Positions 1 through 52,209 of a stretch of DNA of 64,000 nt are shown piece by piece. Within the stretch, counting starts at the first letter, position 1. Each line of letters opens with the position of its first letter. The notes beneath the pieces were generated by a model that saw only the letters and a list, made by a program, of their open reading frames with translations, made no database searches and had not been told where the DNA came from. Origin of the DNA: Escherichia phage vB-Eco-KMB43; the sequence record OR525698.1; one strand, 5' to 3'. Position numbers and translations under genes: made by a program.

Positions 1-2109
1 TTAAAATTTAACATTCTTAACCAGTTTCATAAAGTCTTGTGCGCGTTTGTCGTTATGCAGAATACGATACCAGTTATCTACAATATCATACAGTAACGGG
101 CTATTCTCTTTAAACTTCGCACAAACTGCTTTAATTCGTTCGTTTGCTGCCGTGAATTTTTCATCACAGATCTTTTTAGTTTCTTCGTCCATAATCCAAC
201 GAGTACGAAGGAGTAACTTGGAAACCTCTTTATTATAATGACGACCGTACAGTCTGTCAATAAATTCTGGAACACAGCGTTCTAGTTCATCGTCATGAAA
301 CAACATAGTGATCACACCCAGATATTCGCCATACCCCAGATGATTGGTCTTAACCTTCTTAGCCAGACCAGCCAGCTTACCGCGAACAAATTCTAGCGCA
401 CATTCCAATTGTTCGTCAACGAGATATTTTTGTGTCTCGTTTCGAGTAATAATATACTTTGTTACCCCGAAGTAGTCAAGCGCCGTATGTAATGTATTTT
501 CACTATAGATCGATTTACGACTACGGCTTTCGAATGCATCACCTACGCGGAACATGTGCAAGCCTGATAACTCGCGAATCTCTGCCGCTTTCATGTGATG
601 GCTGGTTTTATGCCAACTGTCACCAATCTTTTCCATAATATACACGTTAGGCAGCTTGGGAGTAGCTTCACGTTGTGTACGCTCGGTCTTCTCCGGTTTA
701 ACTGCTTTAGCACGCAGATCATCGGCCTCTGATACCTTAATCACGGTCATTTCAGAATCATCATAATACTGTTTGATGTACTCGAAAGTCTCCATATGTT
801 TTTCGTTGCGCTGACGGAACACCAGTACCTTTTTATTGATTCCGTATTCCTGGACCATGCCGTTAAGAGTCAGTGCACGCAGTTTCGGTTTATCGGTATC
901 ATCAATTACACACAGAATATCTTCTTTATGCATCCATACAAAATGCGTAATGTTGTATTGACTGCTAACGAAAGCAGGGCGCAATTTACTGATTGTGTGA
1001 CGAGTACGATACAGAGTATACACCTGACCTTCTACGTCATTAGGCGAATCTTTACCCGCATTCACAAACTTATTATAGATTGCTACCGGATCATCCCATT
1101 GTCCGATCTTACCCATCTTGCTAATAATATTGCGTTGAGTCGATGAATACTCGCTCATAAATTGCGCAAGTTTACGCTCTGTTTTAATGTTGGCGATCTT
1201 TTCTTTAACCTTTTCCAACATCATTTCATTGATTTCTGCAATGCGTTTTTCGATGTTCGCTTTAGTCTCAATTGACAAGTGAACTTCTTCACGCGATGGC
1301 ATAAGGTCTAGATCACCCAACTCAAAATTAATGTAAATGGTCTGGTGCTGGCGGTTTACAGCTTCTAACCATGTTCCGCGAACATATTCATACGGGATCG
1401 GATACTGGATCTTACCCATGATTGCATATACTACATAGGAATCGTTATCACGCCCATTACAAACATAATAATTATCAAAGCTAGGGAAATAATTAATTTC
1501 GATTGCATTGATATTCGGTTTGTGTTCCCCAAAATGACGCAGTACAAATTGTGCTTCTCGATGCCATGTCTGAATGTCTTTTTCTTTCACCGGAATAGTG
1601 ATTTTCAGACCATTGTCTTCACAGGTCGGTTCGTCGAAAATCTGCACCATTTTCGGCATAGAGTTTTGCACAAATGCCGTAAAGCCATAAGCGCGACCAT
1701 TGTAATAGTTTACGATTGTAAAGGTGTCGGTATAGCTATAAGCAGACTTCGCACCTAAACCAAAAGATCCGATATAATCATTAGTCTGGTCTTTTGTTGA
1801 TTCAAAGTAAACCGTAAACAGTTGTTCTAATTCTTTCTTAGACGGAATACCAGTACCATAATCACGCACAGAAAAATACGGTTCGATTGCAGTCGGTAAA
1901 TGAATATCAAACGGACGATCTAAGGTTCCGGCTTCTTTGTGAGTGTCGGTAGCATTGCACGAATACTCACGGACGCAAGCACGCTCACAATATTGATAAG
2001 TGTTCTTAGAAAGCACCATAAAAGCCTTGCTACTTGCTTTCAGTGAAAAATCAACCGCACCGCTCAAGTCACTGCCAAATACTTCTTCATTATCAATATG
2101 CATTTTCAT
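1..2109 (-). CDS. rIIA: rIIA-like protein (GHKL/HATPase-type fold)
   Basis: 702 aa ORF; ATPase-like motifs DYGTGI and GLGAKS; lies downstream of topoisomerase gene 39 as in T4; ATG at 2109 with GAGGA RBS. Confidence 0.75.
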   Translation of the reverse strand: MKMHIDNEEVFGSDLSGAVDFSLKASSKAFMVLSKNTYQYCERACVREYSCNATDTHKEAGTLDRPFDIHLPTAIEPYFSVRDYGTGIPSKKELEQLFTVYFESTKDQTNDYIGSFGLGAKSAYSYTDTFTIVNYYNGRAYGFTAFVQNSMPKMVQIFDEPTCEDNGLKITIPVKEKDIQTWHREAQFVLRHFGEHKPNINAIEINYFPSFDNYYVCNGRDNDSYVVYAIMGKIQYPIPYEYVRGTWLEAVNRQHQTIYINFELGDLDLMPSREEVHLSIETKANIEKRIAEINEMMLEKVKEKIANIKTERKLAQFMSEYSSTQRNIISKMGKIGQWDDPVAIYNKFVNAGKDSPNDVEGQVYTLYRTRHTISKLRPAFVSSQYNITHFVWMHKEDILCVIDDTDKPKLRALTLNGMVQEYGINKKVLVFRQRNEKHMETFEYIKQYYDDSEMTVIKVSEADDLRAKAVKPEKTERTQREATPKLPNVYIMEKIGDSWHKTSHHMKAAEIRELSGLHMFRVGDAFESRSRKSIYSENTLHTALDYFGVTKYIITRNETQKYLVDEQLECALEFVRGKLAGLAKKVKTNHLGYGEYLGVITMLFHDDELERCVPEFIDRLYGRHYNKEVSKLLLRTRWIMDEETKKICDEKFTAANERIKAVCAKFKENSPLLYDIVDNWYRILHNDKRAQDFMKLVKNVKF

Positions 2110-2123
2110 AATATAATCCTCAC

Positions 2124-2381
2124 TTAATTAAAATCTTCTTTGTCCATCTCTGCGTAGATTACATCCCACGCCCATAAATCAATAAACGCATTATATGTCA
2201 CGGTGCAATCGTTGTCAATCACTTCTTTCGCATATTTCTTGATGTTTTCGTAGGAAACTTGCGGATCAATTTTGTGTTTACGAAGATGCGCATATTCATA
2301 CCTCAAACACTCCATAAACAGGTCCATCGATTTCTTTTCTCGATGACACTTGGCGATCAGAAAATCAAAACTTCGACTCAT
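2124..2381 (-). CDS. hypothetical protein (85 aa)
   Basis: ORF in minus-strand early array between 39 and rIIA; no recognisable motif. Confidence 0.4.
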   Translation of the reverse strand: MSRSFDFLIAKCHREKKSMDLFMECLRYEYAHLRKHKIDPQVSYENIKKYAKEVIDNDCTVTYNAFIDLWAWDVIYAEMDKEDFN

Positions 2382-2391
2382 TTTCTACTCC

Positions 2392-2586
2392 TTATACATT
2401 TTCAATCACCCATTGCAGATGGGCTTCTGCGTCAACCAGTTCAGCGCGGCTTTTCTCTAAGCACTTGCTGTATTCTTTACGTTCCCAATCAGCAATTTCG
2501 TTTTTCAGGACTTCTTCATAGTAAGCAATTACGCCTTTCAGGTCTGAAACTTTACGGCTTGCCAGTTCGATGTAATGGTTACGCAT
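2392..2586 (-). CDS. hypothetical protein (64 aa)
   Basis: small ORF in co-oriented array. Confidence 0.3.
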   Translation of the reverse strand: MRNHYIELASRKVSDLKGVIAYYEEVLKNEIADWERKEYSKCLEKSRAELVDAEAHLQWVIENV

Positions 2587-2782
2587 TTTGATTCTCCTTT
2601 GTTACTAGATAACGAATTTGGTCTTGCATTGCAATCAGTTCCCAGCGTGCTACTTTCATCATGGAAACTGCCTCTTTGAACATAATATTAGCTTTTTCCT
2701 TATTCCCTGTCAAGTAGATTTCTGCAATTTTTTCACAAAATTTTTGAGTTTCTTCATTCTTAAACGGTTTCATATAAGTCAA
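2579..2782 (-). CDS. hypothetical protein (67 aa)
   Basis: small ORF in co-oriented array. Confidence 0.3.
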   Translation of the reverse strand: MTYMKPFKNEETQKFCEKIAEIYLTGNKEKANIMFKEAVSMMKVARWELIAMQDQIRYLVTKENQNA

Positions 2783-2839
2783 CCTTTTATTTTCGATGGG
2801 GATATTATGATATATCCCCGATCCAGTGTCAACAGATTT

Positions 2840-3139
2840 TTAATCTTTTTTCAATGCATCCATTACTCGCTCTGCGATCAGTTCTCGTAAGCACTGATAA
2901 CCATGATATTTGATGGCAATGTCACGCAGATCATTAACCAGTTCCCGTACTTCATGGTCTTTCAAATCGTCTCTGTATTTCGATTTAACCGTGTCTTTAG
3001 GTGGATTGCGGATAACCTGAAAACCTTGTTCTGCAATCACTGCGGCTTCGCGCTGGCGTTCATGCTGTACTGTATTTTTGATCAGGTCTGCTTCCATGAA
3101 CTTTGCCATACTCATCATCATGTTATTCTTTTTGCTCAT
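2840..3139 (-). CDS. hypothetical protein (about 99 aa)
   Basis: ORF track extends to 3220 through the promoter; internal ATG at 3139 preceded by AGGA RBS chosen. Confidence 0.35.
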   Translation of the reverse strand: MSKKNNMMMSMAKFMEADLIKNTVQHERQREAAVIAEQGFQVIRNPPKDTVKSKYRDDLKDHEVRELVNDLRDIAIKYHGYQCLRELIAERVMDALKKD

Positions 3140-8916: not shown

Positions 8917-9420
8917 TTAAATTAAAGAAAATTTGTAAATCTCTATCAGATCGCCATTACACGCGTAAACTTCCTCGATCTCATCAAGGATCATGGTCGT
9001 CCCTGTCTTGTATATGCACTCGCGCTCATCTGCCAACATAGCATACAAAGACAGTCGAGTAGTCGGATTGTCATACTCTTTAGATACCACTCGGTCAATA
9101 GCATGTTCGTAATAATTCATGCAAGGCTTGGTAGGTTTTATTGCAATAATCTTTCCTGTTGCATAAACATCGGTTGCAAAGTCCTCTGCTGTTGATTGCA
9201 GTGGCGTAAAGCTCATAGGACGCTCTACAACGAAAGAATCACCTACAATTAAGGTATCCAGCTTACGACCTTCTCTTTTGCTCACACCGCGATACAAGGC
9301 TTCATGATGCACTAACCGTTCAGTCTTTTCGATCAATCCATTAAGGATCGACATATCGATATTTTCTTTAGAGTTCATCAATTCATCAATGATGTTAAGT
9401 TCTTCTGGTGTAAATTGCAT
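8917..9420 (-). CDS. hypothetical protein, possible ModA/ModB-like ADP-ribosyltransferase
   Basis: 167 aa; LYRG and SFTP motifs reminiscent of the ART R-S-E pattern; T4 modA/modB position; weak. Confidence 0.3.
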   Translation of the reverse strand: MQFTPEELNIIDELMNSKENIDMSILNGLIEKTERLVHHEALYRGVSKREGRKLDTLIVGDSFVVERPMSFTPLQSTAEDFATDVYATGKIIAIKPTKPCMNYYEHAIDRVVSKEYDNPTTRLSLYAMLADERECIYKTGTTMILDEIEEVYACNGDLIEIYKFSLI

Positions 9421-9453
9421 AATAAAAAAGCCTCCAATCTTTCGACGGGAGGC
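9421..9453 (-). terminator. rho-independent terminator (hairpin GCCTCC...GGAGGC plus U-run)
   Basis: minus-strand hairpin followed by TTTTTTATT just before ATG 9420. Confidence 0.45.
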
Positions 9454-9482
9454 ATAATAAAACCATTATAGAGTAGTGTCAA
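9454..9482 (-). promoter_or_regulatory. early promoter (TTGACA, 17 nt, TATTAT) overlapping a terminator hairpin
   Basis: between gene 56 stop and ORF 8917-9420. Confidence 0.45.
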
Positions 9483-9489
9483 CTAATTT

Positions 9490-10008
9490 TTAGTAGCCGC
9501 GTTCTTGACGGGCGAAGTTTTCAGCATTTTTCAGATAGTATAGAATAAAGAGTTCTTGAGCGTCAATACCCAGCGGGATCATCTTTGACAGAATGAAGTG
9601 GATCGCGTCCACAAATTCAAATTTCACTTCAAGCTGATCTTCTGGTGACAGTTCAGAGAATTTACGCGCTCGCGCTTCCCCGTGGTTCTTTTTCCACATT
9701 TTCCAGATTGCACTTGCATCTTTACCATTTGACATGCCACCCAGCGATGTGTAAAGCTCTCGTGTTTCGTCTGCGATAGCGTCATCCATCCGTTGCATCC
9801 AATCCAACATTTCACCGCAAGTCTCTAGCTTAGTTGGATTTGGGACCCAATCAAATTTTTCGGATAATGCAACCTGCAAACCAGTTTGCATTTCGAGCAT
9901 CACCTGAAACGGATCTTTACCTTCTGCAATAGCGTGATGATATGCGGCGATAGCCGCGTTAATATCTTTTTCGTTAACCAGACCAGCACAAGAATTAAAT
10001 TCTGACAT
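9490..10008 (-). CDS. 56: dCTP pyrophosphatase, MazG-like
   Basis: N-terminus MSEFNSCAGL aligns with T4 gp56; EFVDAIHF MazG motif; ATG at 10008. Confidence 0.75.
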   Translation of the reverse strand: MSEFNSCAGLVNEKDINAAIAAYHHAIAEGKDPFQVMLEMQTGLQVALSEKFDWVPNPTKLETCGEMLDWMQRMDDAIADETRELYTSLGGMSNGKDASAIWKMWKKNHGEARARKFSELSPEDQLEVKFEFVDAIHFILSKMIPLGIDAQELFILYYLKNAENFARQERGY

Positions 10009-10022
10009 ATTCACCTCATTAA

Positions 10023-11051
10023 TTAAAATTTACAATATTTCATAAACCGCATTTTAGCCATCAGACCTTGTACGGTGTTCTCTTTGATATATTCCATGAT
10101 CTGGTCGCGTGTAGCGCCCTCGTCCTGAATCATGGCGTTAACGTCTTTAGAATGCCACGGGCAACGGTCCCACAATACAATCTTTTCCCCTGCATTGATA
10201 AACTTTTCCAGTCGGTGCATTGTATCGGCAGACCGTGGTTCCGCATCAAGTACAAACACTCGCTGGTCTGGGAAAGGGATTTCATCTAATCCCAAAGTAC
10301 CGCCAGTAATTGCACACCCGTTATCAATAAACAATGAATCGATCGGACCTTCTAAGAAATACACTGGCCTACTCGGATCGGCGCGTTCAAGACCATAGAC
10401 CTTACTCGCTAACTCATGAGTTTTAATCGTCATATATTTGGTCTTTCCGTAATCCTTTCTCAATGCTCGCCCCTGAATGGATTCTATCTTGTTCTCGCGG
10501 TTAAAGATAGGAATCACTAAACGCGGTTCAGGTTGTGGATTCTTGAAAGTATCAGCCTTAATGTGATTTGCTACCTTTTGCCATTCTCTCGTGAAATACA
10601 GAAGGTCCCATTTATCGTGAGGGATGCAACGATCACTGACATACTTTATTATAGGATGATTAGCCGGAAGAGTATCTAATCTCTCGCAGAAAGGCAATGT
10701 TTGCACTTTCTTAATCTCCGGCTTTTCTACCTTTTTCAGTGGCTTGAACGTGGTGTTCTTGTGGTCTCCTTGTTCCTTCCGTCGTTCCATAAGCCATTCC
10801 CTGAATAGGTCCGGCTTATACTGTTTGAGAAATTCACCTAACGGCTGATTGTAGTTACAGTTGAAACAACCACAACGCAAACTATCCTTATAGGTATAGA
10901 TACGGAATCGCGCCATTGTGCTATTCTTTTTGGAATCTCCGCAGATCGGACAACTTGCTACTAACGTAAATGAGTTAGTATGTAACCGCTTGAAATTTCG
11001 TTCGCCGTATAATGCTTTTTCGGCTATTTCATAATCTGCGTAGTAAATCAT
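10023..11051 (-). CDS. 61: DNA primase
   Basis: 342 aa; N-terminal zinc ribbon CPICG...CFNC; same length as T4 gp61. Confidence 0.85.
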   Translation of the reverse strand: MIYYADYEIAEKALYGERNFKRLHTNSFTLVASCPICGDSKKNSTMARFRIYTYKDSLRCGCFNCNYNQPLGEFLKQYKPDLFREWLMERRKEQGDHKNTTFKPLKKVEKPEIKKVQTLPFCERLDTLPANHPIIKYVSDRCIPHDKWDLLYFTREWQKVANHIKADTFKNPQPEPRLVIPIFNRENKIESIQGRALRKDYGKTKYMTIKTHELASKVYGLERADPSRPVYFLEGPIDSLFIDNGCAITGGTLGLDEIPFPDQRVFVLDAEPRSADTMHRLEKFINAGEKIVLWDRCPWHSKDVNAMIQDEGATRDQIMEYIKENTVQGLMAKMRFMKYCKF

Positions 11052-11058
11052 AAGATCC

Positions 11059-11622
11059 TCACTGTATATTTTTACTTCTCTGCTTTCCTATCCAGATCCG
11101 TCTAACTGTTTCCGCATTAACATCATATATTTTTGCGGTCTTTGCCGCAGATCCGGTTCCTTTTAGAGTTTTGATTTCTTCAATCTGATCTTTGGTTAAT
11201 TTAGCCCAATGGTGTGCATCACCATAACACGAACTCAGACCGTGTGTCAATGCATGAATCTGATTTTCTGATTGTGTAACCCATTCAAGATTATATAGGT
11301 CATGGTTTCTTTTGTTTCCATCGATATGATTAACAAACGGCAAATTGTTTACGTTTGGTATAAACGCTTCTGCTTTTGCTCTGTGTATGTATATCGATAG
11401 AGATTTAACCCTAGACCCTGAACTAGTTTTATTACCGTAAGGATCTCTGATTCTTGCTACGGCGTATCCACCGCTTCTTCCGGCTACAGATTCTCTATAA
11501 ATCTTTCCTGTTTTCTTGTTTCTAATGCGTCCATATGAGCTAACCTCGTAGCCTGGCATTTCGACGCCCATATAAACAAGGTCTTTCCATTCTTCTGGAT
11601 GTTCATCACAATACCGTTTCAT
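11059..11622 (-). CDS. HNH homing endonuclease (NUMOD4-like plus HNH)
   Basis: GYEVSSYGRIRN motif and VNHIDGNKRNHDLYNLEWVTQSEN HNH motif; inserted just downstream of primase gene. Confidence 0.75.
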   Translation of the reverse strand: MKRYCDEHPEEWKDLVYMGVEMPGYEVSSYGRIRNKKTGKIYRESVAGRSGGYAVARIRDPYGNKTSSGSRVKSLSIYIHRAKAEAFIPNVNNLPFVNHIDGNKRNHDLYNLEWVTQSENQIHALTHGLSSCYGDAHHWAKLTKDQIEEIKTLKGTGSAAKTAKIYDVNAETVRRIWIGKQRSKNIQ

Positions 11623-11637
11623 GATGTTATTAACCTC

Positions 11638-11841
11638 TTATAGCTCAAATTTCATGAAAGTTCCAACACTTTCATTTTCATTCTCTCCGTTTTCATCTAA
11701 GCCAAATTTATAGACACTACCATCTGGCGATGTGTAAGAGAATACACGAAAACGGCCTACCGGATCAAGTTCTGTAAATTCATATTCTTTTCCGGCTTCA
11801 AAAAGTGCATATGTGCTTTTAAGACATTTCATCGTAATCAT
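11638..11841 (-). CDS. hypothetical protein (67 aa)
   Basis: small ORF; start overlaps upstream stop (ATGA). Confidence 0.35.
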   Translation of the reverse strand: MITMKCLKSTYALFEAGKEYEFTELDPVGRFRVFSYTSPDGSVYKFGLDENGENENESVGTFMKFEL

Positions 11842-11981
11842 TTAAGCGCCACCGACAACAGAATGAGAACTACACCAACATACATTGTGATCTCGGATAA
11901 CTTTTCTGTTTTTGTTTTGTGTCCAGATAATCCGAAAATAACAACACCGATAATAGCGGACAGCAAGCCAACGATAAACAT
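11838..11981 (-). CDS. small membrane protein (47 aa, below ORF-track cutoff)
   Basis: hand-translated MFIVGLLSAIIGVVIFGL..., one TM helix; stop/start overlap with neighbours. Confidence 0.3.
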   Translation of the reverse strand: MFIVGLLSAIIGVVIFGLSGHKTKTEKLSEITMYVGVVLILLSVALK

Positions 11982-11988
11982 GATGATA

Positions 11989-12165
11989 CTAAGCACCGTC
12001 TTTCTCCTTTTTGCGTTTTTCTTTACCCGCTACACTAGGTCCACGATTGGTAATAGATCCGCTCGTTTCACCTGCTGCGATCTTCTCAGGATTGCCGCCA
12101 GCATCGCCAGCGGTCATATCTTCTTTGAGTTTATTTTCTTCAACAAACTGTTTAAATCCAATCAT
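11989..12165 (-). CDS. small hydrophilic protein (58 aa, below ORF-track cutoff)
   Basis: hand-translated MIGFKQFVEENKLKEDM...; ATGA overlap with upstream ORF stop. Confidence 0.3.
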   Translation of the reverse strand: MIGFKQFVEENKLKEDMTAGDAGGNPEKIAAGETSGSITNRGPSVAGKEKRKKEKDGA

Positions 12166-12539
12166 AGAATAATCTCTTTCAGTAAGTCAACAATCTGGTC
12201 TTTCGTCAGTTTATCCTGATTCTCTACAATCTTGATAACACAAGCATTAACATCTTTTCTAGTCACGCGGGAGATCGTTTTAATACGATGAAACGGTTCG
12301 TAGAAATATACTGCTTCATTATAGAGCGCAGCAATTTTTCGACGCATTTGATCTTTATCCGACAAGAAAACAAGTGCTGTTTTATGACCTTCTACACCCG
12401 CCACGTTATATAGTTCAGCAACACCCCAGCGACCTTCCGGTTCAATCATTCCGGCGTGTTTACCGTCGATAAAAATAAGAATATCTCCGTTGAATGCGGT
12501 TTTGAATGCTACATCTTCCGGCGTAATCATATTTTTCAT
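12162..12539 (-). CDS. hypothetical protein (125 aa)
   Basis: ORF in 61-41 intergenic accessory block. Confidence 0.4.
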   Translation of the reverse strand: MKNMITPEDVAFKTAFNGDILIFIDGKHAGMIEPEGRWGVAELYNVAGVEGHKTALVFLSDKDQMRRKIAALYNEAVYFYEPFHRIKTISRVTRKDVNACVIKIVENQDKLTKDQIVDLLKEIIL

Positions 12540-12569
12540 AATATAGTCTCCTTAGAGTTTCATTATAGA

Positions 12570-13205
12570 TCAAGCGAATGTAGAAAGCAAACGTTTTGTT
12601 TCTTTCAGTTGTCGTTCAAGATCTTTGCGTTTCTCTTTAAGTTGCATTTTAGCATTATTTCGCTGTTTTTCAACATCTTTATCAATATGCTTAGTCCAAT
12701 TATCAATATCAGAATAAGTTGGCATACCCAATTCTAGACCTAATGCGGTTGGATACAGGGTAACAGTCCATAAACCGCTAATCTTCTTAAATAGGTCGGG
12801 GTGTAGTGTACTATCTACATCTTCCGGTGTCAACTCTTTTTCTTCTTTCAGTGGTGGGATCTCGTCATATGGTTCCAGTGCATTTACTTTAATATCAGAT
12901 ACCTCATCAAAGAATCCGCGTACATCCGCAGGAAATACACAAGCAATTTCCCAACCGTGATCACGCAGAGAAGTAATATTTTTCACTTCCCCACCATGTG
13001 TGATGATTGATGTGACATTGCCATCAAGGTCCACCGAATTTACGAGAAATGGCTTATCGTCTGTCAGATCATTATAAAACTGGGCTTCGGCTGTAGTCAT
13101 CTCCAGAAACAGATCTCGGATCGGACGACCATCAGGTGCGTTACCTTCCTTGAGAGTATAAAAGCGACTTACGATCCATTTTGGCGGTAAAGCATTAGCA
13201 ATCAT
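12570..13205 (-). CDS. hypothetical protein (211 aa), T4 61.2-like position
   Basis: ORF between primase and helicase; size and position resemble T4 61.2; no motif recognised. Confidence 0.4.
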   Translation of the reverse strand: MIANALPPKWIVSRFYTLKEGNAPDGRPIRDLFLEMTTAEAQFYNDLTDDKPFLVNSVDLDGNVTSIITHGGEVKNITSLRDHGWEIACVFPADVRGFFDEVSDIKVNALEPYDEIPPLKEEKELTPEDVDSTLHPDLFKKISGLWTVTLYPTALGLELGMPTYSDIDNWTKHIDKDVEKQRNNAKMQLKEKRKDLERQLKETKRLLSTFA

Positions 13206-48296: not shown

Positions 48297-48582
48297 CTCG
48301 ATTCTCCATATTATGCAACATAACAAACTGTTGTGCGGCATATTCCCCCATAATAAAACACTGCTTAGAATCCATACATTTACTACGAGCATACATCTTC
48401 ATAATATGGGCATGAAATTTCTGGCTGGTTTCAATGGAAGGAGATATTTTGTTTACATATACTATCATTGCGCCGTCGAAATAATCAGTAAAGTCACCAG
48501 TTGGATCATATTGATCAGCACTGACACTTCCGACCGCAGTCAAGCATATTGCCGCTGTTAGAGTTTTACGAATAAATGACAT
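48280..48582 (-). CDS. secreted protein with signal peptide (100 aa)
   Basis: N-terminal signal-like MSFIRKTLTAAICLTAVGSVSA; TATAAATA late-promoter motif 34 nt upstream. Confidence 0.4.
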   Translation of the reverse strand: MSFIRKTLTAAICLTAVGSVSADQYDPTGDFTDYFDGAMIVYVNKISPSIETSQKFHAHIMKMYARSKCMDSKQCFIMGEYAAQQFVMLHNMENREHEIQ

Positions 48583-48615
48583 AAGTCATTCCCCCAGATT
48601 AAAAATATTCAGTTA

Positions 48616-48623
48616 TATTTATA
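48616..48623 (-). promoter_or_regulatory. T4-type late promoter motif TATAAATA
   Basis: 34 nt upstream of secreted-protein ORF start at 48582. Confidence 0.4.
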
Positions 48624-48650
48624 ATCTGGGGCTTTATTTATGATTAACTC

Positions 48651-49247
48651 TTATTTGGTAGTACCGTCAATAAAATGTTTACGACACACAGAAACATATT
48701 TATCCTCTGCACCAACTTCTATTTGAGCACCATCGCGAATAACATTACCATCTTTATCTACGCGAAGGACCATAGTCGCTTTCTTGCCACAATGACAAAT
48801 ACCCTTCATTTCGACCAGTTTATCAGCAAATGCCATTAATGCCGTAGATCCTTCAAATAGATTGCCCTGAAAGTCAGTGCGAAGGCCATAGCACAGTACA
48901 GGGATATTAGCATCATCAACAAGCGCACACAAGCCTAAAACATGCTCTTTAGTCATAAATTGGGCTTCGTCTACAAAAACTGCATCTGGACGCCATCGAT
49001 CCGGTCTACGCTTACCTAACGATTCACGATAAACCAAGTCGAAAAGATCATCCGATTTAGTGAAGGTGATCGCTGGAGCACTTAGGCCAATTCGGGAAAC
49101 GACTTCACTTTCTGAATCTCGATTATCAATCGCTGGCTTAAGAATTAATACTCGCATATCACGTTCGGTATAGTTATAAGCACTTTGTAACAGAGAAGTT
49201 GATTTGCCAGCGTTCATAGATGCATAGTAGAAATATAATTGCGCCAT
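48651..49247 (-). CDS. tk: thymidine kinase
   Basis: 198 aa; near-identical motifs to T4 Tk (AMNAGKS, VFVDEAQF, YGLRTDF, CHCGKKA). Confidence 0.9.
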   Translation of the reverse strand: MAQLYFYYASMNAGKSTSLLQSAYNYTERDMRVLILKPAIDNRDSESEVVSRIGLSAPAITFTKSDDLFDLVYRESLGKRRPDRWRPDAVFVDEAQFMTKEHVLGLCALVDDANIPVLCYGLRTDFQGNLFEGSTALMAFADKLVEMKGICHCGKKATMVLRVDKDGNVIRDGAQIEVGAEDKYVSVCRKHFIDGTTK

Positions 49248-49540
49248 TAATTAATCTCCAAAAATCCAACAAGGCCTAAACCGATATAAGTCCAGATACC
49301 AATGAAAAAGATGTTAATGCTCATGGCAAGGATAAACCCTTTCAGAGTTTTGGGATACCCGACCCAATATTCCCGACCATCTTCTAACCGGATCAACTTA
49401 TTGCCTTGCGAGTCCATATCAACTACAACATGTTTATTTCGAGATTGCAATAGATATTGTTTTACAATCTCTACACCCGCCATAATAACAATAACGAAAA
49501 TAAAAGTCCACACAACAAGATTAATGATAGTCTCAAGCAT
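49247..49540 (-). CDS. membrane protein (97 aa)
   Basis: two hydrophobic helices. Confidence 0.35.
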   Translation of the reverse strand: MLETIINLVVWTFIFVIVIMAGVEIVKQYLLQSRNKHVVVDMDSQGNKLIRLEDGREYWVGYPKTLKGFILAMSINIFFIGIWTYIGLGLVGFLEIN

Positions 49541-49775
49541 TTTCTATCACCTCCACCCAATCAGGTGTTTCCTGAAAGACTCCTTCACCTTCATGATGGT
49601 CGCAACCTTTATTGCTGCAATACATCCACCAATCCCACATTCCCCACGGTAAACGCTGCATATCGTCGTTACAGCAAGTGAAGATAATAGGCCAACCACA
49701 TCTAACACATCGGCAGTTTTCCTTCATGTGTGCGGTATTAGGCTTCTTCATAGATGACTCCAATATAATCGACAT
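49533..49775 (-). CDS. Cys-rich zinc-binding protein (80 aa)
   Basis: CRCVRCGW...FTCCNDD...CSNKGCDHHEG. Confidence 0.35.
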   Translation of the reverse strand: MSIILESSMKKPNTAHMKENCRCVRCGWPIIFTCCNDDMQRLPWGMWDWWMYCSNKGCDHHEGEGVFQETPDWVEVIENA

Positions 49776-49978
49776 TTACATTTAGGGCAATGCGGTTCTT
49801 TAATATAATACCCGTCTGTCTTTGGAACACTAACAGGAGCGGTTTTTATATTGTATTCAGTGAAACAACGAAAACAAGTTACGTTTTCTACAGACTGACG
49901 TTTCACCCAATCACCGGAATATAGATCATTTTTATTTGTCATATTCAACCACCACAATGTTAATGTCTGGAGTAGCAA
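49748..49978 (-). CDS. zinc-ribbon protein (76 aa)
   Basis: CFRCF...CPKCKC. Confidence 0.3.
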   Translation of the reverse strand: MLLQTLTLWWLNMTNKNDLYSGDWVKRQSVENVTCFRCFTEYNIKTAPVSVPKTDGYYIKEPHCPKCKCRLYWSHL

Positions 49979-50387
49979 TATTAATGATCTCTTCTACACA
50001 TTCCCACTCAAGGCCACCGATACCGCAACCGATTTTAGGAATATAGAAAGGCTGTATAGCACCTTCAAAAACATCATTGATAGTCTCAAATCCTTTCAGG
50101 ATAGCACCATATTCAGCATTTGGACCCGGTCGGAATTGGGTATAGAGATTCACCCCGCACCAGTTATAACCATTAACTTGATGCGTCCAGACACTAAACC
50201 CACCCAGCTTTTCTACCTTACCGCGAGAAGTTTGCTTGTCAATCTCTAACGCTTGCGGGAACTCTTTCGCGATCTTTGCAGCAATACCAGCGCCCATAGT
50301 ATGAAAACAATTACAACCATGAATTAAATGACCGTTTCCTTGTTTAAACAGGGCGATGAGATCGCCCTTTACAGTATCAATAATCAT
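49932..50387 (-). CDS. macro domain protein, TARG1/DarG-like (ADP-ribose hydrolase family)
   Basis: 151 aa; LIHGCNCFHTMGAGIAAKIAKEFP matches the H-C-x-x-x-M-G-A-G-I-A signature of TARG1-type macro domains. Confidence 0.6.
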   Translation of the reverse strand: MIIDTVKGDLIALFKQGNGHLIHGCNCFHTMGAGIAAKIAKEFPQALEIDKQTSRGKVEKLGGFSVWTHQVNGYNWCGVNLYTQFRPGPNAEYGAILKGFETINDVFEGAIQPFYIPKIGCGIGGLEWECVEEIINIATPDINIVVVEYDK

Positions 50388-50402
50388 AATATAAACCTCT
50401 CA

Positions 50403-50762
50403 TTAGTCACGGGAAGACAACCCAGCCATAAAACGGCTTAACAGTGTGTCGCGATAAGCAAAGCATAATTGCTTATCAGGGGCAGTATCACAAAGGTTGC
50501 GTTTTGTTTTAGCAAAGCTGGCAATACTCAGATCCCATGCTCGATTTTTTCGTTTTTCGTCTCGACCTTGTTTGTATGCTTCGTCGAGTTCAAGTGCGAT
50601 AAAATCACTACACATGTTATCATCATCACAGAAAGTTTTAATGATCTTTTTGTTGATCTCAAATCCTTTGTATTCGAACTTTGGATAAGGGCGCTCATTA
50701 CTAGCAAGCGCACCAGCCGAGAACATCATAGCAATCATAGCAATTATTGTCAACTTTTTCAT
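50403..50762 (-). CDS. secreted/periplasmic protein (119 aa)
   Basis: signal peptide MKKLTIIAMIAMMFSAGALA; several Cys. Confidence 0.4.
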   Translation of the reverse strand: MKKLTIIAMIAMMFSAGALASNERPYPKFEYKGFEINKKIIKTFCDDDNMCSDFIALELDEAYKQGRDEKRKNRAWDLSIASFAKTKRNLCDTAPDKQLCFAYRDTLLSRFMAGLSSRD

Positions 50763-50769
50763 ATATTCC

Positions 50770-51360
50770 TCAATAGCGTTTAGTCTTAAGAATGCCTTTA
50801 CTCTTTAGATGGTTAGCCTTTTTTAGTACGTCATCAGCATAACCTAATCCGGCTTTATAGTTCCATCCAGCATTGTAAGAAGCTAGCGCGAGTCGGATAT
50901 TACCGTTTCGAACATCCAGCCAGTATGCTAACTCATCCATCGCGTAGAATGCAGAAACCTCGCGATTCATGATAAAGTTGATAGTCTGGCGATCACTCAT
51001 TTTAACACCGCGCTTTGCATTTTTCGCTTTCACCGTTTTAAGGTAATTTTGAAATAATCCATAAGCATGATGATTTTTCTTTGGTGCTAAGTTTGCACCC
51101 GCGCTTGATTCTTGCCATGCGATACCCGCCAGGATGTGACCTAAACCCTTTCCGTTATAGCGAATATTCGGATGGTCCTTTTTCAACTTACCGCTTTTCT
51201 CGAATTGCTCGCCGTATTGATAGGCGAAATGTAAATTATCTAGTTGGTGTGCTGTAAAGTTGTCTATCGGCGCTTTTTTGATCGGTGCGCTAGTCGATGC
51301 GTGTGTAGCACCAACGGCTAGTGACAGACTCAATACTATCGCTTTTAGAACTTTTAACAT
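50770..51360 (-). CDS. secreted lytic transglycosylase-like protein (SLT domain)
   Basis: signal peptide; AWQESS, YGLFQ and SYNAG motifs typical of the SLT family. Confidence 0.6.
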   Translation of the reverse strand: MLKVLKAIVLSLSLAVGATHASTSAPIKKAPIDNFTAHQLDNLHFAYQYGEQFEKSGKLKKDHPNIRYNGKGLGHILAGIAWQESSAGANLAPKKNHHAYGLFQNYLKTVKAKNAKRGVKMSDRQTINFIMNREVSAFYAMDELAYWLDVRNGNIRLALASYNAGWNYKAGLGYADDVLKKANHLKSKGILKTKRY

Positions 51361-51446
51361 TAATTTCTCCTGTTTGGCTTAACTTTCTGATTCCATAATA
51401 TAGCCCTATCACCAGAAAGTCAAGCATTATTTTTAACCAATTTCCA

Positions 51447-51869
51447 TTATTGGTCTACCTTCAAAACAACCGCCGACATTTTACCCGCCAGTCGTTTTGG
51501 ATTCTCTATAATCATTCGACAGCATAGACCGTGATACGGCTTGCCGTCTTCAATTAGGTCTACTGTCATCCCGATCCACATGTTACCGTCAGTAATTTCT
51601 AATCGATTAGGTCGGTCTTCCATTTTCAGGAAGTCGAAGATCTCCGGCAAACGAGTTTCTATCTTATTGAATAGTTCCATTGTCTTATGTTCATCGATAT
51701 GACGATCGGTTAGACGGTCGATCATATGCGGACTAAAGCGAATAAAAATATACTCACCATAACCATCATTCAAACACTTTTCTTTGATCTGCGCATTGGT
51801 TTTGCGCATTTCGGTTTCGAAGAATCTACGCAGCTTACTACGGCGAACATGTACGTTAATTGTTTCCAT
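51447..51869 (-). CDS. regB: RegB site-specific endoribonuclease
   Basis: RRSKLRRFFE, RLEITDGNMW, CRMII..RLAGK align with T4 RegB; ATG at 51869. Confidence 0.8.
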   Translation of the reverse strand: METINVHVRRSKLRRFFETEMRKTNAQIKEKCLNDGYGEYIFIRFSPHMIDRLTDRHIDEHKTMELFNKIETRLPEIFDFLKMEDRPNRLEITDGNMWIGMTVDLIEDGKPYHGLCCRMIIENPKRLAGKMSAVVLKVDQ

Positions 51870-51873
51870 TTTA

Positions 51874-52209
51874 TTATCCTTTCTTAAACAAATTGCGAAT
51901 CCAGTATACAAACGGGATTTCTTTAAACTTGAACTTGTCAATAGTTAATTCTTTAGTAGCAAGATGAATACCATAAGCATCATGTGTAACTATATGCCAT
52001 TTTCTATAGTCCAAATGTGAACAACCGTCTGGATCTAGGTTAATAAGAGTTTCTCTCTCACTAGGATTATTTTTCCACAATTTTGTAATAGGATCGCACA
52101 TAATTCGACCTAGCGTACCATGAATAATCTCACAACGGTAAAGTTTTCCAGCAGTGAGATAGGCGCACCCGTCATAGTCGGTATAAACAAACACTTCTTT
52201 AACACTCAT
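51874..52209 (-). CDS. paralog family C member (about 111 aa)
   Basis: DPDGCSHLDYRKWHIV shared with 52270-52706; ATG at 52209 after promoter-hairpin cassette. Confidence 0.4.
   Translation of the reverse strand: MSVKEVFVYTDYDGCAYLTAGKLYRCEIIHGTLGRIMCDPITKLWKNNPSERETLINLDPDGCSHLDYRKWHIVTHDAYGIHLATKELTIDKFKFKEIPFVYWIRNLFKKG

Follow-up and report, generated by a model that had tools for sequence, protein, structure and literature searches.

Gene content and translation signals of the tk.4 region

The window analysed here, a stretch of 64,000 nucleotides from Escherichia phage vB-Eco-KMB43 (OR525698.1), carries on its minus strand a group of genes that extends from regB to the thymidine kinase gene tk (Table 1). 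Within this group lies an ATG-to-TAA open reading frame whose length is well above chance expectation, and whose 151-residue product includes LIHGCNCFHTMGAGIAAKIAKEFP as residues 21 to 44; the initial annotation had reported this frame together with its motif, and both were confirmed. The 2.8-kb stretch around the gene showed 99% identity to Escherichia phages phiS, E26 and JSE, and 98% identity to Phi1, RB49 and some 50 further phages; all of these are Krischvirus T4-like phages. The gene already bears the name tk.4 in the annotations of JSE, Phi1 and RB49, where the product labels range over "Tk.4 conserved hypothetical protein", "phosphatase" and "macro domain protein", and the Tk.4 protein of JSE is 100% identical to that of the window. 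The protein matched PHROG 335 (1e-61), and a homologue is present in 2,731 phage records.

Table 1. Features of the tk.4 region, in window coordinates, and the gene pairs from rV5-like phages with which it was compared
Feature	Coordinates	Strand	Basis or remark
tk, thymidine kinase	48651..49247	-	Pfam TK 8.7e-52; synteny anchor
Hydrophobic/membrane ORF, 97 aa	49247..49540	-	PHROG 16027; Krischvirus only in the sample examined
Zinc-binding protein, 72-80 aa	49533..49775	-	PF23895, PHROG 2306
Zinc-ribbon protein, 64 aa	49748..49942	-	PF23903, PHROG 4864; mechanical ORF reaches TTG at 49978
tk.4/adfM orthologue, stand-alone 151-aa macrodomain	49932..50387	-	ATG-to-TAA ORF; ALC1-like (TARG1/DarG/SCO6735) class
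Codons of the Gly-rich diphosphate-binding loop, G120-C-G-I-G-G125	50013..50030	-	HMMER and MAFFT alignments
Gln84 codon, CAA	50136..50138	-	At the catalytic Lys of TARG1 (K84), DarG (K80) and PhiKZ AdfM (K78); HMMER and MAFFT
Asn26 codon	50310..50312	-	Equivalent of DarG Asn22 and SCO6735 Asn27 (substrate and Gln positioning)
Putative Shine-Dalgarno, GAGG	50396..50399	-	8 nt 5' of the tk.4 ATG, directly past the vs stop (50403-50405); sequence inference
vs, valyl-tRNA synthetase modifier	50403..50762	-	PHROG 1256 1.8e-33; JSE, T2 and T4 annotation; directly 5' of tk.4
vs.1, SLT-like transglycosylase-domain protein	50770..51360	-	Pfam SLT 6.6e-6; synteny anchor
regB endoribonuclease	51447..51941	-	Pfam REGB_T4 2.6e-48, match from residue 29; synteny anchor
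Macrodomain and PF23903 pair, rV5-like phage MiataMamis (L005)	2001-2902		Compared with window 49748-50387
Macrodomain and PF23903 pair, rV5-like phage (L009)	3102-4192		Compared with window 49748-50387
Macrodomain and PF23903 pair, rV5-like phage (L010)	3291-4192		Compared with window 49748-50387

The gene order regB-vs.1-vs-tk.4-(small ORFs)-tk-rI is common to T4, T2, JSE and the window. The Tk.4 protein of T4, which is the same in sequence as that of T2, aligned with the window protein over 150 of its 151 residues with 44% identity (E 9e-45); the two have the same size, the same position between vs and tk, and the same Asn/Gln/Gly-loop site. They differ in 56% of their residues and in the composition of the interval towards tk, where T4 has small DUF7438 and DUF7202 ORFs instead of the zinc-ribbon and membrane ORFs found here. 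Judged by sequence and gene order, the window gene is the RB49/JSE-group (Krischvirus) orthologue of T4 tk.4/adfM. Across a wider sample, the macrodomain gene has tk or vs.1 at a distance of no more than 4 kb in 21 to 24 of 83 viral loci.

Two gene starts differ from those of the mechanically delimited frames. The regB frame of 164 aa begins at a TTG, but translation probably begins at an internal ATG (METINVH...), in line with the 140 aa given for the protein in JSE. The initial annotation had also placed two Cys-rich mini-proteins just upstream of tk. Both are genuine, since they belong to PF23895 and PF23903, but for the second one the ATG at 49942 is the most likely start, because JSE annotates it as such and the family matches only from residue 13 of the TTG-started frame; in addition, the 97-aa ORF intervenes between the pair and tk. 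A promoter and terminator scan of positions 48400-52100 gave 14 promoter-like sites, as compared with 11.3 +/- 3.1 in shuffled sequences, and hence no excess.

Fold, class and active site of the macrodomain

The initial annotation had assigned the product to the TARG1/DarG type of macrodomain rather than to the MacroD type, and we evaluated this assignment with profile searches and structure prediction. The Pfam Macro profile (PF01661) matched the protein with 28.7 bits (gathering cut-off, 22 bits) from the first to the last of its 118 positions. In the PADLOC and NCBIfam libraries the DarG models were the sole matches, in both cases through the macrodomain portion only (positions 3-141 of 329 in PADLOC; positions 2-141 of 338 in NCBIfam, with 48.4 bits against a cut-off of 250 bits). 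The search against sequences of solved structures returned exclusively macrodomains of the ALC1-like class, namely Mtb DarG (4.8e-8), BT1257, SCO6735, TARG1 and Poa1p; when a profile of 76 relatives was used, the same set was recovered at 5e-16 to 8e-9, with TTHA0132 (1e-4) as one additional weak match. The AlphaFold2 model obtained from the alignment (mean pLDDT 96.8, pTM 0.91) has the three-layer alpha/beta/alpha macro fold, and TARG1, Poa1p, both DarG macrodomains, BT1257 and SCO6735 occupied the top Foldseek ranks, with TM values of 0.7-0.84. The nearest neighbours in structure as well as in sequence are of the ALC1-like class, apart from MacroD-type and viral macrodomains. Given the results from Pfam, the structure database, PADLOC/NCBIfam, AlphaFold2 and Foldseek, the original class assignment was correct. 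Within this class, when DarG-derived and SCO6735-derived ancestry were compared, the profile scores were almost equidistant (39-62 bits).

The active-site positions are strongly conserved. Asn26 is present in all 76 sequences of the family alignment and in all 83 viral loci, and Gln84 in 75 and 80 of them, respectively; neither G120 nor G122 varies in the same family alignment, and G125 is found in 74 of 76 sequences. In the HMMER and MAFFT alignments Gln84, which lies in the context LYTQFR (LYTQFQ in T4 Tk.4), falls on the Lys of TARG1 LITKKR (K84), of Mtb DarG FPTKKH and on K78 of PhiKZ AdfM, and Gly124 (GCGIGGL) falls on Asp125 of TARG1 (GCGLDRL). The HMMER alignment also placed Gln84 on the Gln of NMIGQHG in SCO6735. 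MAFFT misplaced the Gln of SCO6735 and of BT1257 into an insertion, and for these two proteins we used the HMMER pairwise alignments and the published structure-based alignment (PMC9411070).

SCO6735 has been reported as a fast hydrolase of thymidine-linked ADP-ribose on DNA that protects against DarT; its Gln85 occupies the position of the Lys and is locked by Asn27, the Q85A and Q85E variants are inactive, and a water-mediated, lysine-independent mechanism was proposed (PMC9411070). The roles of K80 and Asn22 of DarG have been described as well (PMC5179494). On its residue pattern, the window protein is classed as a Gln-type member of the ALC1-like class. The TARG1-type Lys/Asp mechanism is ruled out, as the corresponding residues here are Gln84 and Gly124. 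The initial annotation had named the absence of the conserved catalytic residues as a result that would speak against its proposal. The Lys and Asp of TARG1/DarG are indeed missing; however, this does not refute the function, because SCO6735 is active with Gln at the same position and the genetically active AdfM of T4 likewise has Gln.

An exception at codon 84 was found in phage ECD7 (KY683735 / NC_041936; locus L008, 3556-4011), whose 98%-identical Tk.4 has AAA (Lys) instead of CAA (Gln), a single C-to-A change that was seen in this phage only. A 59-nt probe for the Lys allele matched 52 Krischvirus records, and the match was exact in the two ECD7 records only. This allele could be a natural Gln-to-Lys switch of the active site or a sequencing error.

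Human TARG1/OARD1 was the top Foldseek match (TM 0.77-0.84, 28-30% identity) and has the K-G-D, MGAGIA and P-R/K-I-G-C-G motifs in common with the window protein, but its catalytic dyad, Lys84/Asp125, is Gln84/Gly124 here, and its main substrates are Glu/Asp-linked ADP-ribose on proteins. With DarG2 of T. aquaticus and M. tuberculosis (5M31, 5M3E, 5M3I) the protein shares the equivalent of Asn22 (Asn26) and the ADP-ribose-binding Gly-rich loop; in contrast, Lys80 of DarG2 is replaced by Gln and the C-terminal DarT-binding domain is missing. No DarT gene was found beside tk.4, the neighbours being vs, vs.1, regB, the two zinc-ribbon ORFs, the membrane ORF and tk. The lack of the C-terminal domain and of a DarT neighbour, together with the score of 48 against 250 bits, rules out a DarG antitoxin proper. 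A bacterial homologue with 44% identity, from Pelagimonas, is likewise a stand-alone protein; its gene is surrounded by housekeeping genes and has no DarT neighbour.

The stand-alone bacterial ALC1-like proteins SCO6735 and BT1257 are 23-26% identical to the window protein. In the alignments, SCO6735 resembles it in the Gln at the Lys position and in the conserved Asn (Asn27, Asn26 here). However, the mobile loop of SCO6735 is five residues longer than that of DarG/TARG1 and provides Lys89 and Lys94 for DNA, whereas the window protein lacks this extension: HMMER aligned the two only with a gap of five residues in the query, placed behind Gln84-Phe85, and the loop reads FRPGPN. SCO6735 also has GWGKGF where the window protein has the TARG1/DarG-like MGAGIA, and it is encoded by a chromosomal gene and not by a phage counter-defence gene. 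Gp104/AdfM of PhiKZ (chimalliviruses) is, like Tk.4, a stand-alone phage macrodomain that counters DarTG2, but it is only 26% identical (E 1e-6), has an Asn23/Lys78 site instead of one with Gln, is imported into the phage nucleus, and is much nearer to DarG (133 bits with the PADLOC DarG model, as compared with 51 bits for the window protein). PhiKZ AdfM and the Tk.4 type are probably independent acquisitions.

Proposed counter-defence role of Tk.4 and alternative activities

In a preprint that screened a T4 transposon library (HIDEN-SEQ, 10.1101/2025.11.20.689424), tk.4 was the single significant hit on a host expressing DarTG2, and a clean tk.4 knockout becomes sensitive to DarTG2, whereas E. 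coli K-12 that lacks DarTG2 supports T4 without the gene. The preprint also notes the similarity to the Mtb DarG macrodomain, renames the gene adfM (anti-DarT factor Macrodomain) and proposes ADP-ribose removal as its enzymatic activity. The name AdfM was given independently to gp104 of PhiKZ, which strips the ADP-ribose added by DarT2 from a TNTC oligonucleotide in vitro, and the same work describes AdfA and AdfB as phage factors that inhibit DarT directly (Cell Rep 2026, PMC13309987). The anti-DarTG2 role of the T4 orthologue was thus already known; the proposal made in the initial annotation was right and is no longer new. A literature search combining Krischvirus and DarTG found no report.

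We consider it likely that the window protein is an anti-DarT2 DNA de-ADP-ribosylase, that is, an "orphan antitoxin-like" counter-defence enzyme. In the proposed mechanism, tk.4 would be expressed within the vs.1-vs-tk.4-...-tk gene block. The DarT2 toxin of the host would put ADP-ribose on thymidines of single-stranded phage DNA at TNTC motifs, and the stand-alone macrodomain would bind the thymidine-attached ADP-ribose and hydrolyse the ribose-thymine bond, with the release of free ADP-ribose. A replicable template would thereby be restored and the abortive DarTG2 defence neutralised. At the active site, Gln84, held by Asn26, would position the distal ribose, and a backbone-activated water would do the chemistry; by analogy with SCO6735, catalysis is probably lysine-independent and does not proceed through a covalent lysyl intermediate of the TARG1 type.

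A phage ADP-ribose hydrolase directed against DarT-like defences had been suggested at the outset, and it is supported by the orthology with T4, the synteny, the class and the active-site residues, all of which, like the fold, were established in this analysis. Elsewhere it has been established that tk.4 of T4 is required only on DarTG2 hosts, that SCO6735, with its Gln, cleaves dT-ADP-ribose, and that the macrodomain of PhiKZ removes in vitro the marks left by DarT2. We infer that the 44%-identical window orthologue would give the same protection against DarTG2, through enzymatic hydrolysis.

Other activities were weighed against this reading. From the labels "phosphatase" and "A1pp motif" in RefSeq one would conclude that Tk.4 hydrolyses a small NAD metabolite, either as an ADP-ribose-1''-phosphate phosphatase (Poa1p-like) or as an O-acetyl-ADP-ribose deacetylase, which might feed NAD+ recovery or destroy ADP-ribose-derived signals. 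We regard this as unlikely, since the term "phosphatase" was transferred as a generic macro-domain label and does not come from an assay, no NAD-salvage genes flank tk.4 in the window, and the only condition found to make T4 tk.4 important is DarTG2, whose toxin modifies DNA. The protein might instead remove ADP-ribose from proteins or RNA, either tuning the phage's own Mod/Alt-type ADP-ribosyltransferases or reversing host defences in which such enzymes target proteins or RNA. A ModB/ModA-like ORF is present in the window (8917-9420, minus strand), and both TARG1 and SCO6735 act on ADP-ribosylated proteins too (PMC9411070). However, some 40 kb separate tk.4 from modB in the window, and the dispensability of T4 tk.4 on K-12 without DarTG2 argues against a core role in phage ADP-ribosylation. 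Moreover, the Alt and Mod enzymes of T4 modify arginine, and macrodomains of the TARG1 class are not known to act on this linkage, all of which makes this activity distinctly unlikely.

It is also conceivable, though in our opinion highly improbable, that Tk.4 counteracts DarT2 chiefly in a non-catalytic way, either by attaching to the toxin or by sequestration of the modified site, in which case Gln84 would mark a catalytically weakened macrodomain. The absence of the canonical nucleophilic Lys is consistent with this idea, as is the finding that the dead Q85A variant of SCO6735 still inhibits DarT in vitro by interaction (PMC9411070), and direct inhibition of DarT is the mode of action of AdfA and AdfB (PMC13309987). 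Nevertheless, Asn26, Thr83, Gln84 and the Gly loop are near-invariant in diverged phages, which is the pattern to be expected for an active site and not for a surface that binds a toxin; SCO6735 shares the Gln and hydrolyses dT-ADPr rapidly (PMC9411070), and the domain with which DarG binds DarT is missing.

The recently described function of AdfM in T4 would thus extend to the RB49/JSE group and, through homology, to about 2,700 sequenced phages. These include therapeutic candidates, whose host range is affected by DarTG2 resistance. That the locus encodes a counter-defence enzyme had been correctly called from sequence alone. As a modest addition to the published work consulted, AdfM proteins of the Tk.4 type have Gln, and would use a SCO6735-like chemistry, where DarG2, TARG1 and PhiKZ AdfM have the catalytic Lys; therefore, phages seem to possess two kinds of macrodomain eraser, of different chemistry, against one and the same toxin.

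Zinc-ribbon neighbours and genes related to ADP-ribose

Of the 83 viral loci, 9 have a PF23903 homologue and 8 a PF23895 homologue no more than 4 kb from the macrodomain gene, and all of these belong to T4-like or rV5-like phages. Neither family was found in the 7 kb around tk.4 of T4, and a PF23895 copy is present in the tk-tk.4 interval of T2. The rV5-like contig L013 has the macrodomain without the PF23903 zinc-ribbon; in L011 the zinc-ribbon occurs without the macrodomain. These unlinked cases, the low counts and the fact that AdfM of T4 works without the zinc-ribbon ORFs rule them out as obligate partners. We therefore regard them as filler genes that vary in the tk region from phage to phage.

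With the copies in rV5-like phages of about 137 kb the window macrodomain has 66-70% identity, as compared with 44% with that of T4, and three of the rV5-like genomes have a 78-83% identical PF23903 ORF 250-450 nt downstream of the macrodomain. This similarity suggests that the two genes moved together by lateral exchange between unrelated myovirus lineages, although the linkage is not universal. A bolder proposal is that the pair forms a small mobile anti-DarT module that Krischvirus and rV5-like phages exchange, in which the lysine-independent Gln-type eraser would clear the DNA mark and the zinc-ribbon protein would bind and block DarT2, providing in trans what the C-terminal domain does in DarG, with Q84K of ECD7 as an interconvertible catalytic switch; we consider it very doubtful.

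Additional genes related to ADP-ribose were recorded. In T4, 61.2 is AdfA, a direct DarT inhibitor, and 30.3 is AdfN, a NADAR anti-DarT1 enzyme. By tblastn, no homologue of 61.2/AdfA, 30.3/AdfN or Alt was found in the 64-kb window, for which the T4 61-61.2 region was compared with positions 10023-13000; only the absence of 61.2 is informative, because in T4-like genomes 30.3 and alt usually map to regions that the window does not cover. In some other phages the macrodomain gene has neighbours of NAD metabolism: a macrodomain of about 35% identity lies beside nicotinamide phosphoribosyltransferase in Pseudomonas phage PAK_P2 (L007, 109-2480), and another of about 35% identity beside ribose-phosphate pyrophosphokinase in Vibrio phages Athena and AG74 (H72, H76). 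This arrangement hints that ADP-ribose removal may be linked to NAD+ reconstitution in some phages. In gp12 of the Felixounavirus wV8 (L006, 1995-2780), the macrodomain forms the N-terminal part (residues 25-141) of a 261-aa protein, and the C-terminal extension of about 110 residues had no Pfam match.

The ModB/ModA-like ORF, which JSE annotates as modB, had no Pfam match. Its 167 aa are fewer than those of T4 ModB and ModA (207 and 200 aa), to which its identity is 33% (E 1e-10) and 24% (E 2e-6), respectively. In the window it is followed by a gene 56-like ORF (9490-10014) and the primase gene (10023-11051). The corresponding interval of JSE (9799-11295, against about 9420-10023 here) includes, between modB and gene 56, a mobile element that is missing from the window, namely a homing-endonuclease gene on the plus strand (9918-10838). 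The offset between the two genomes is 379 bases at dda and 1,841 at tk.4, which implies further indels between them.
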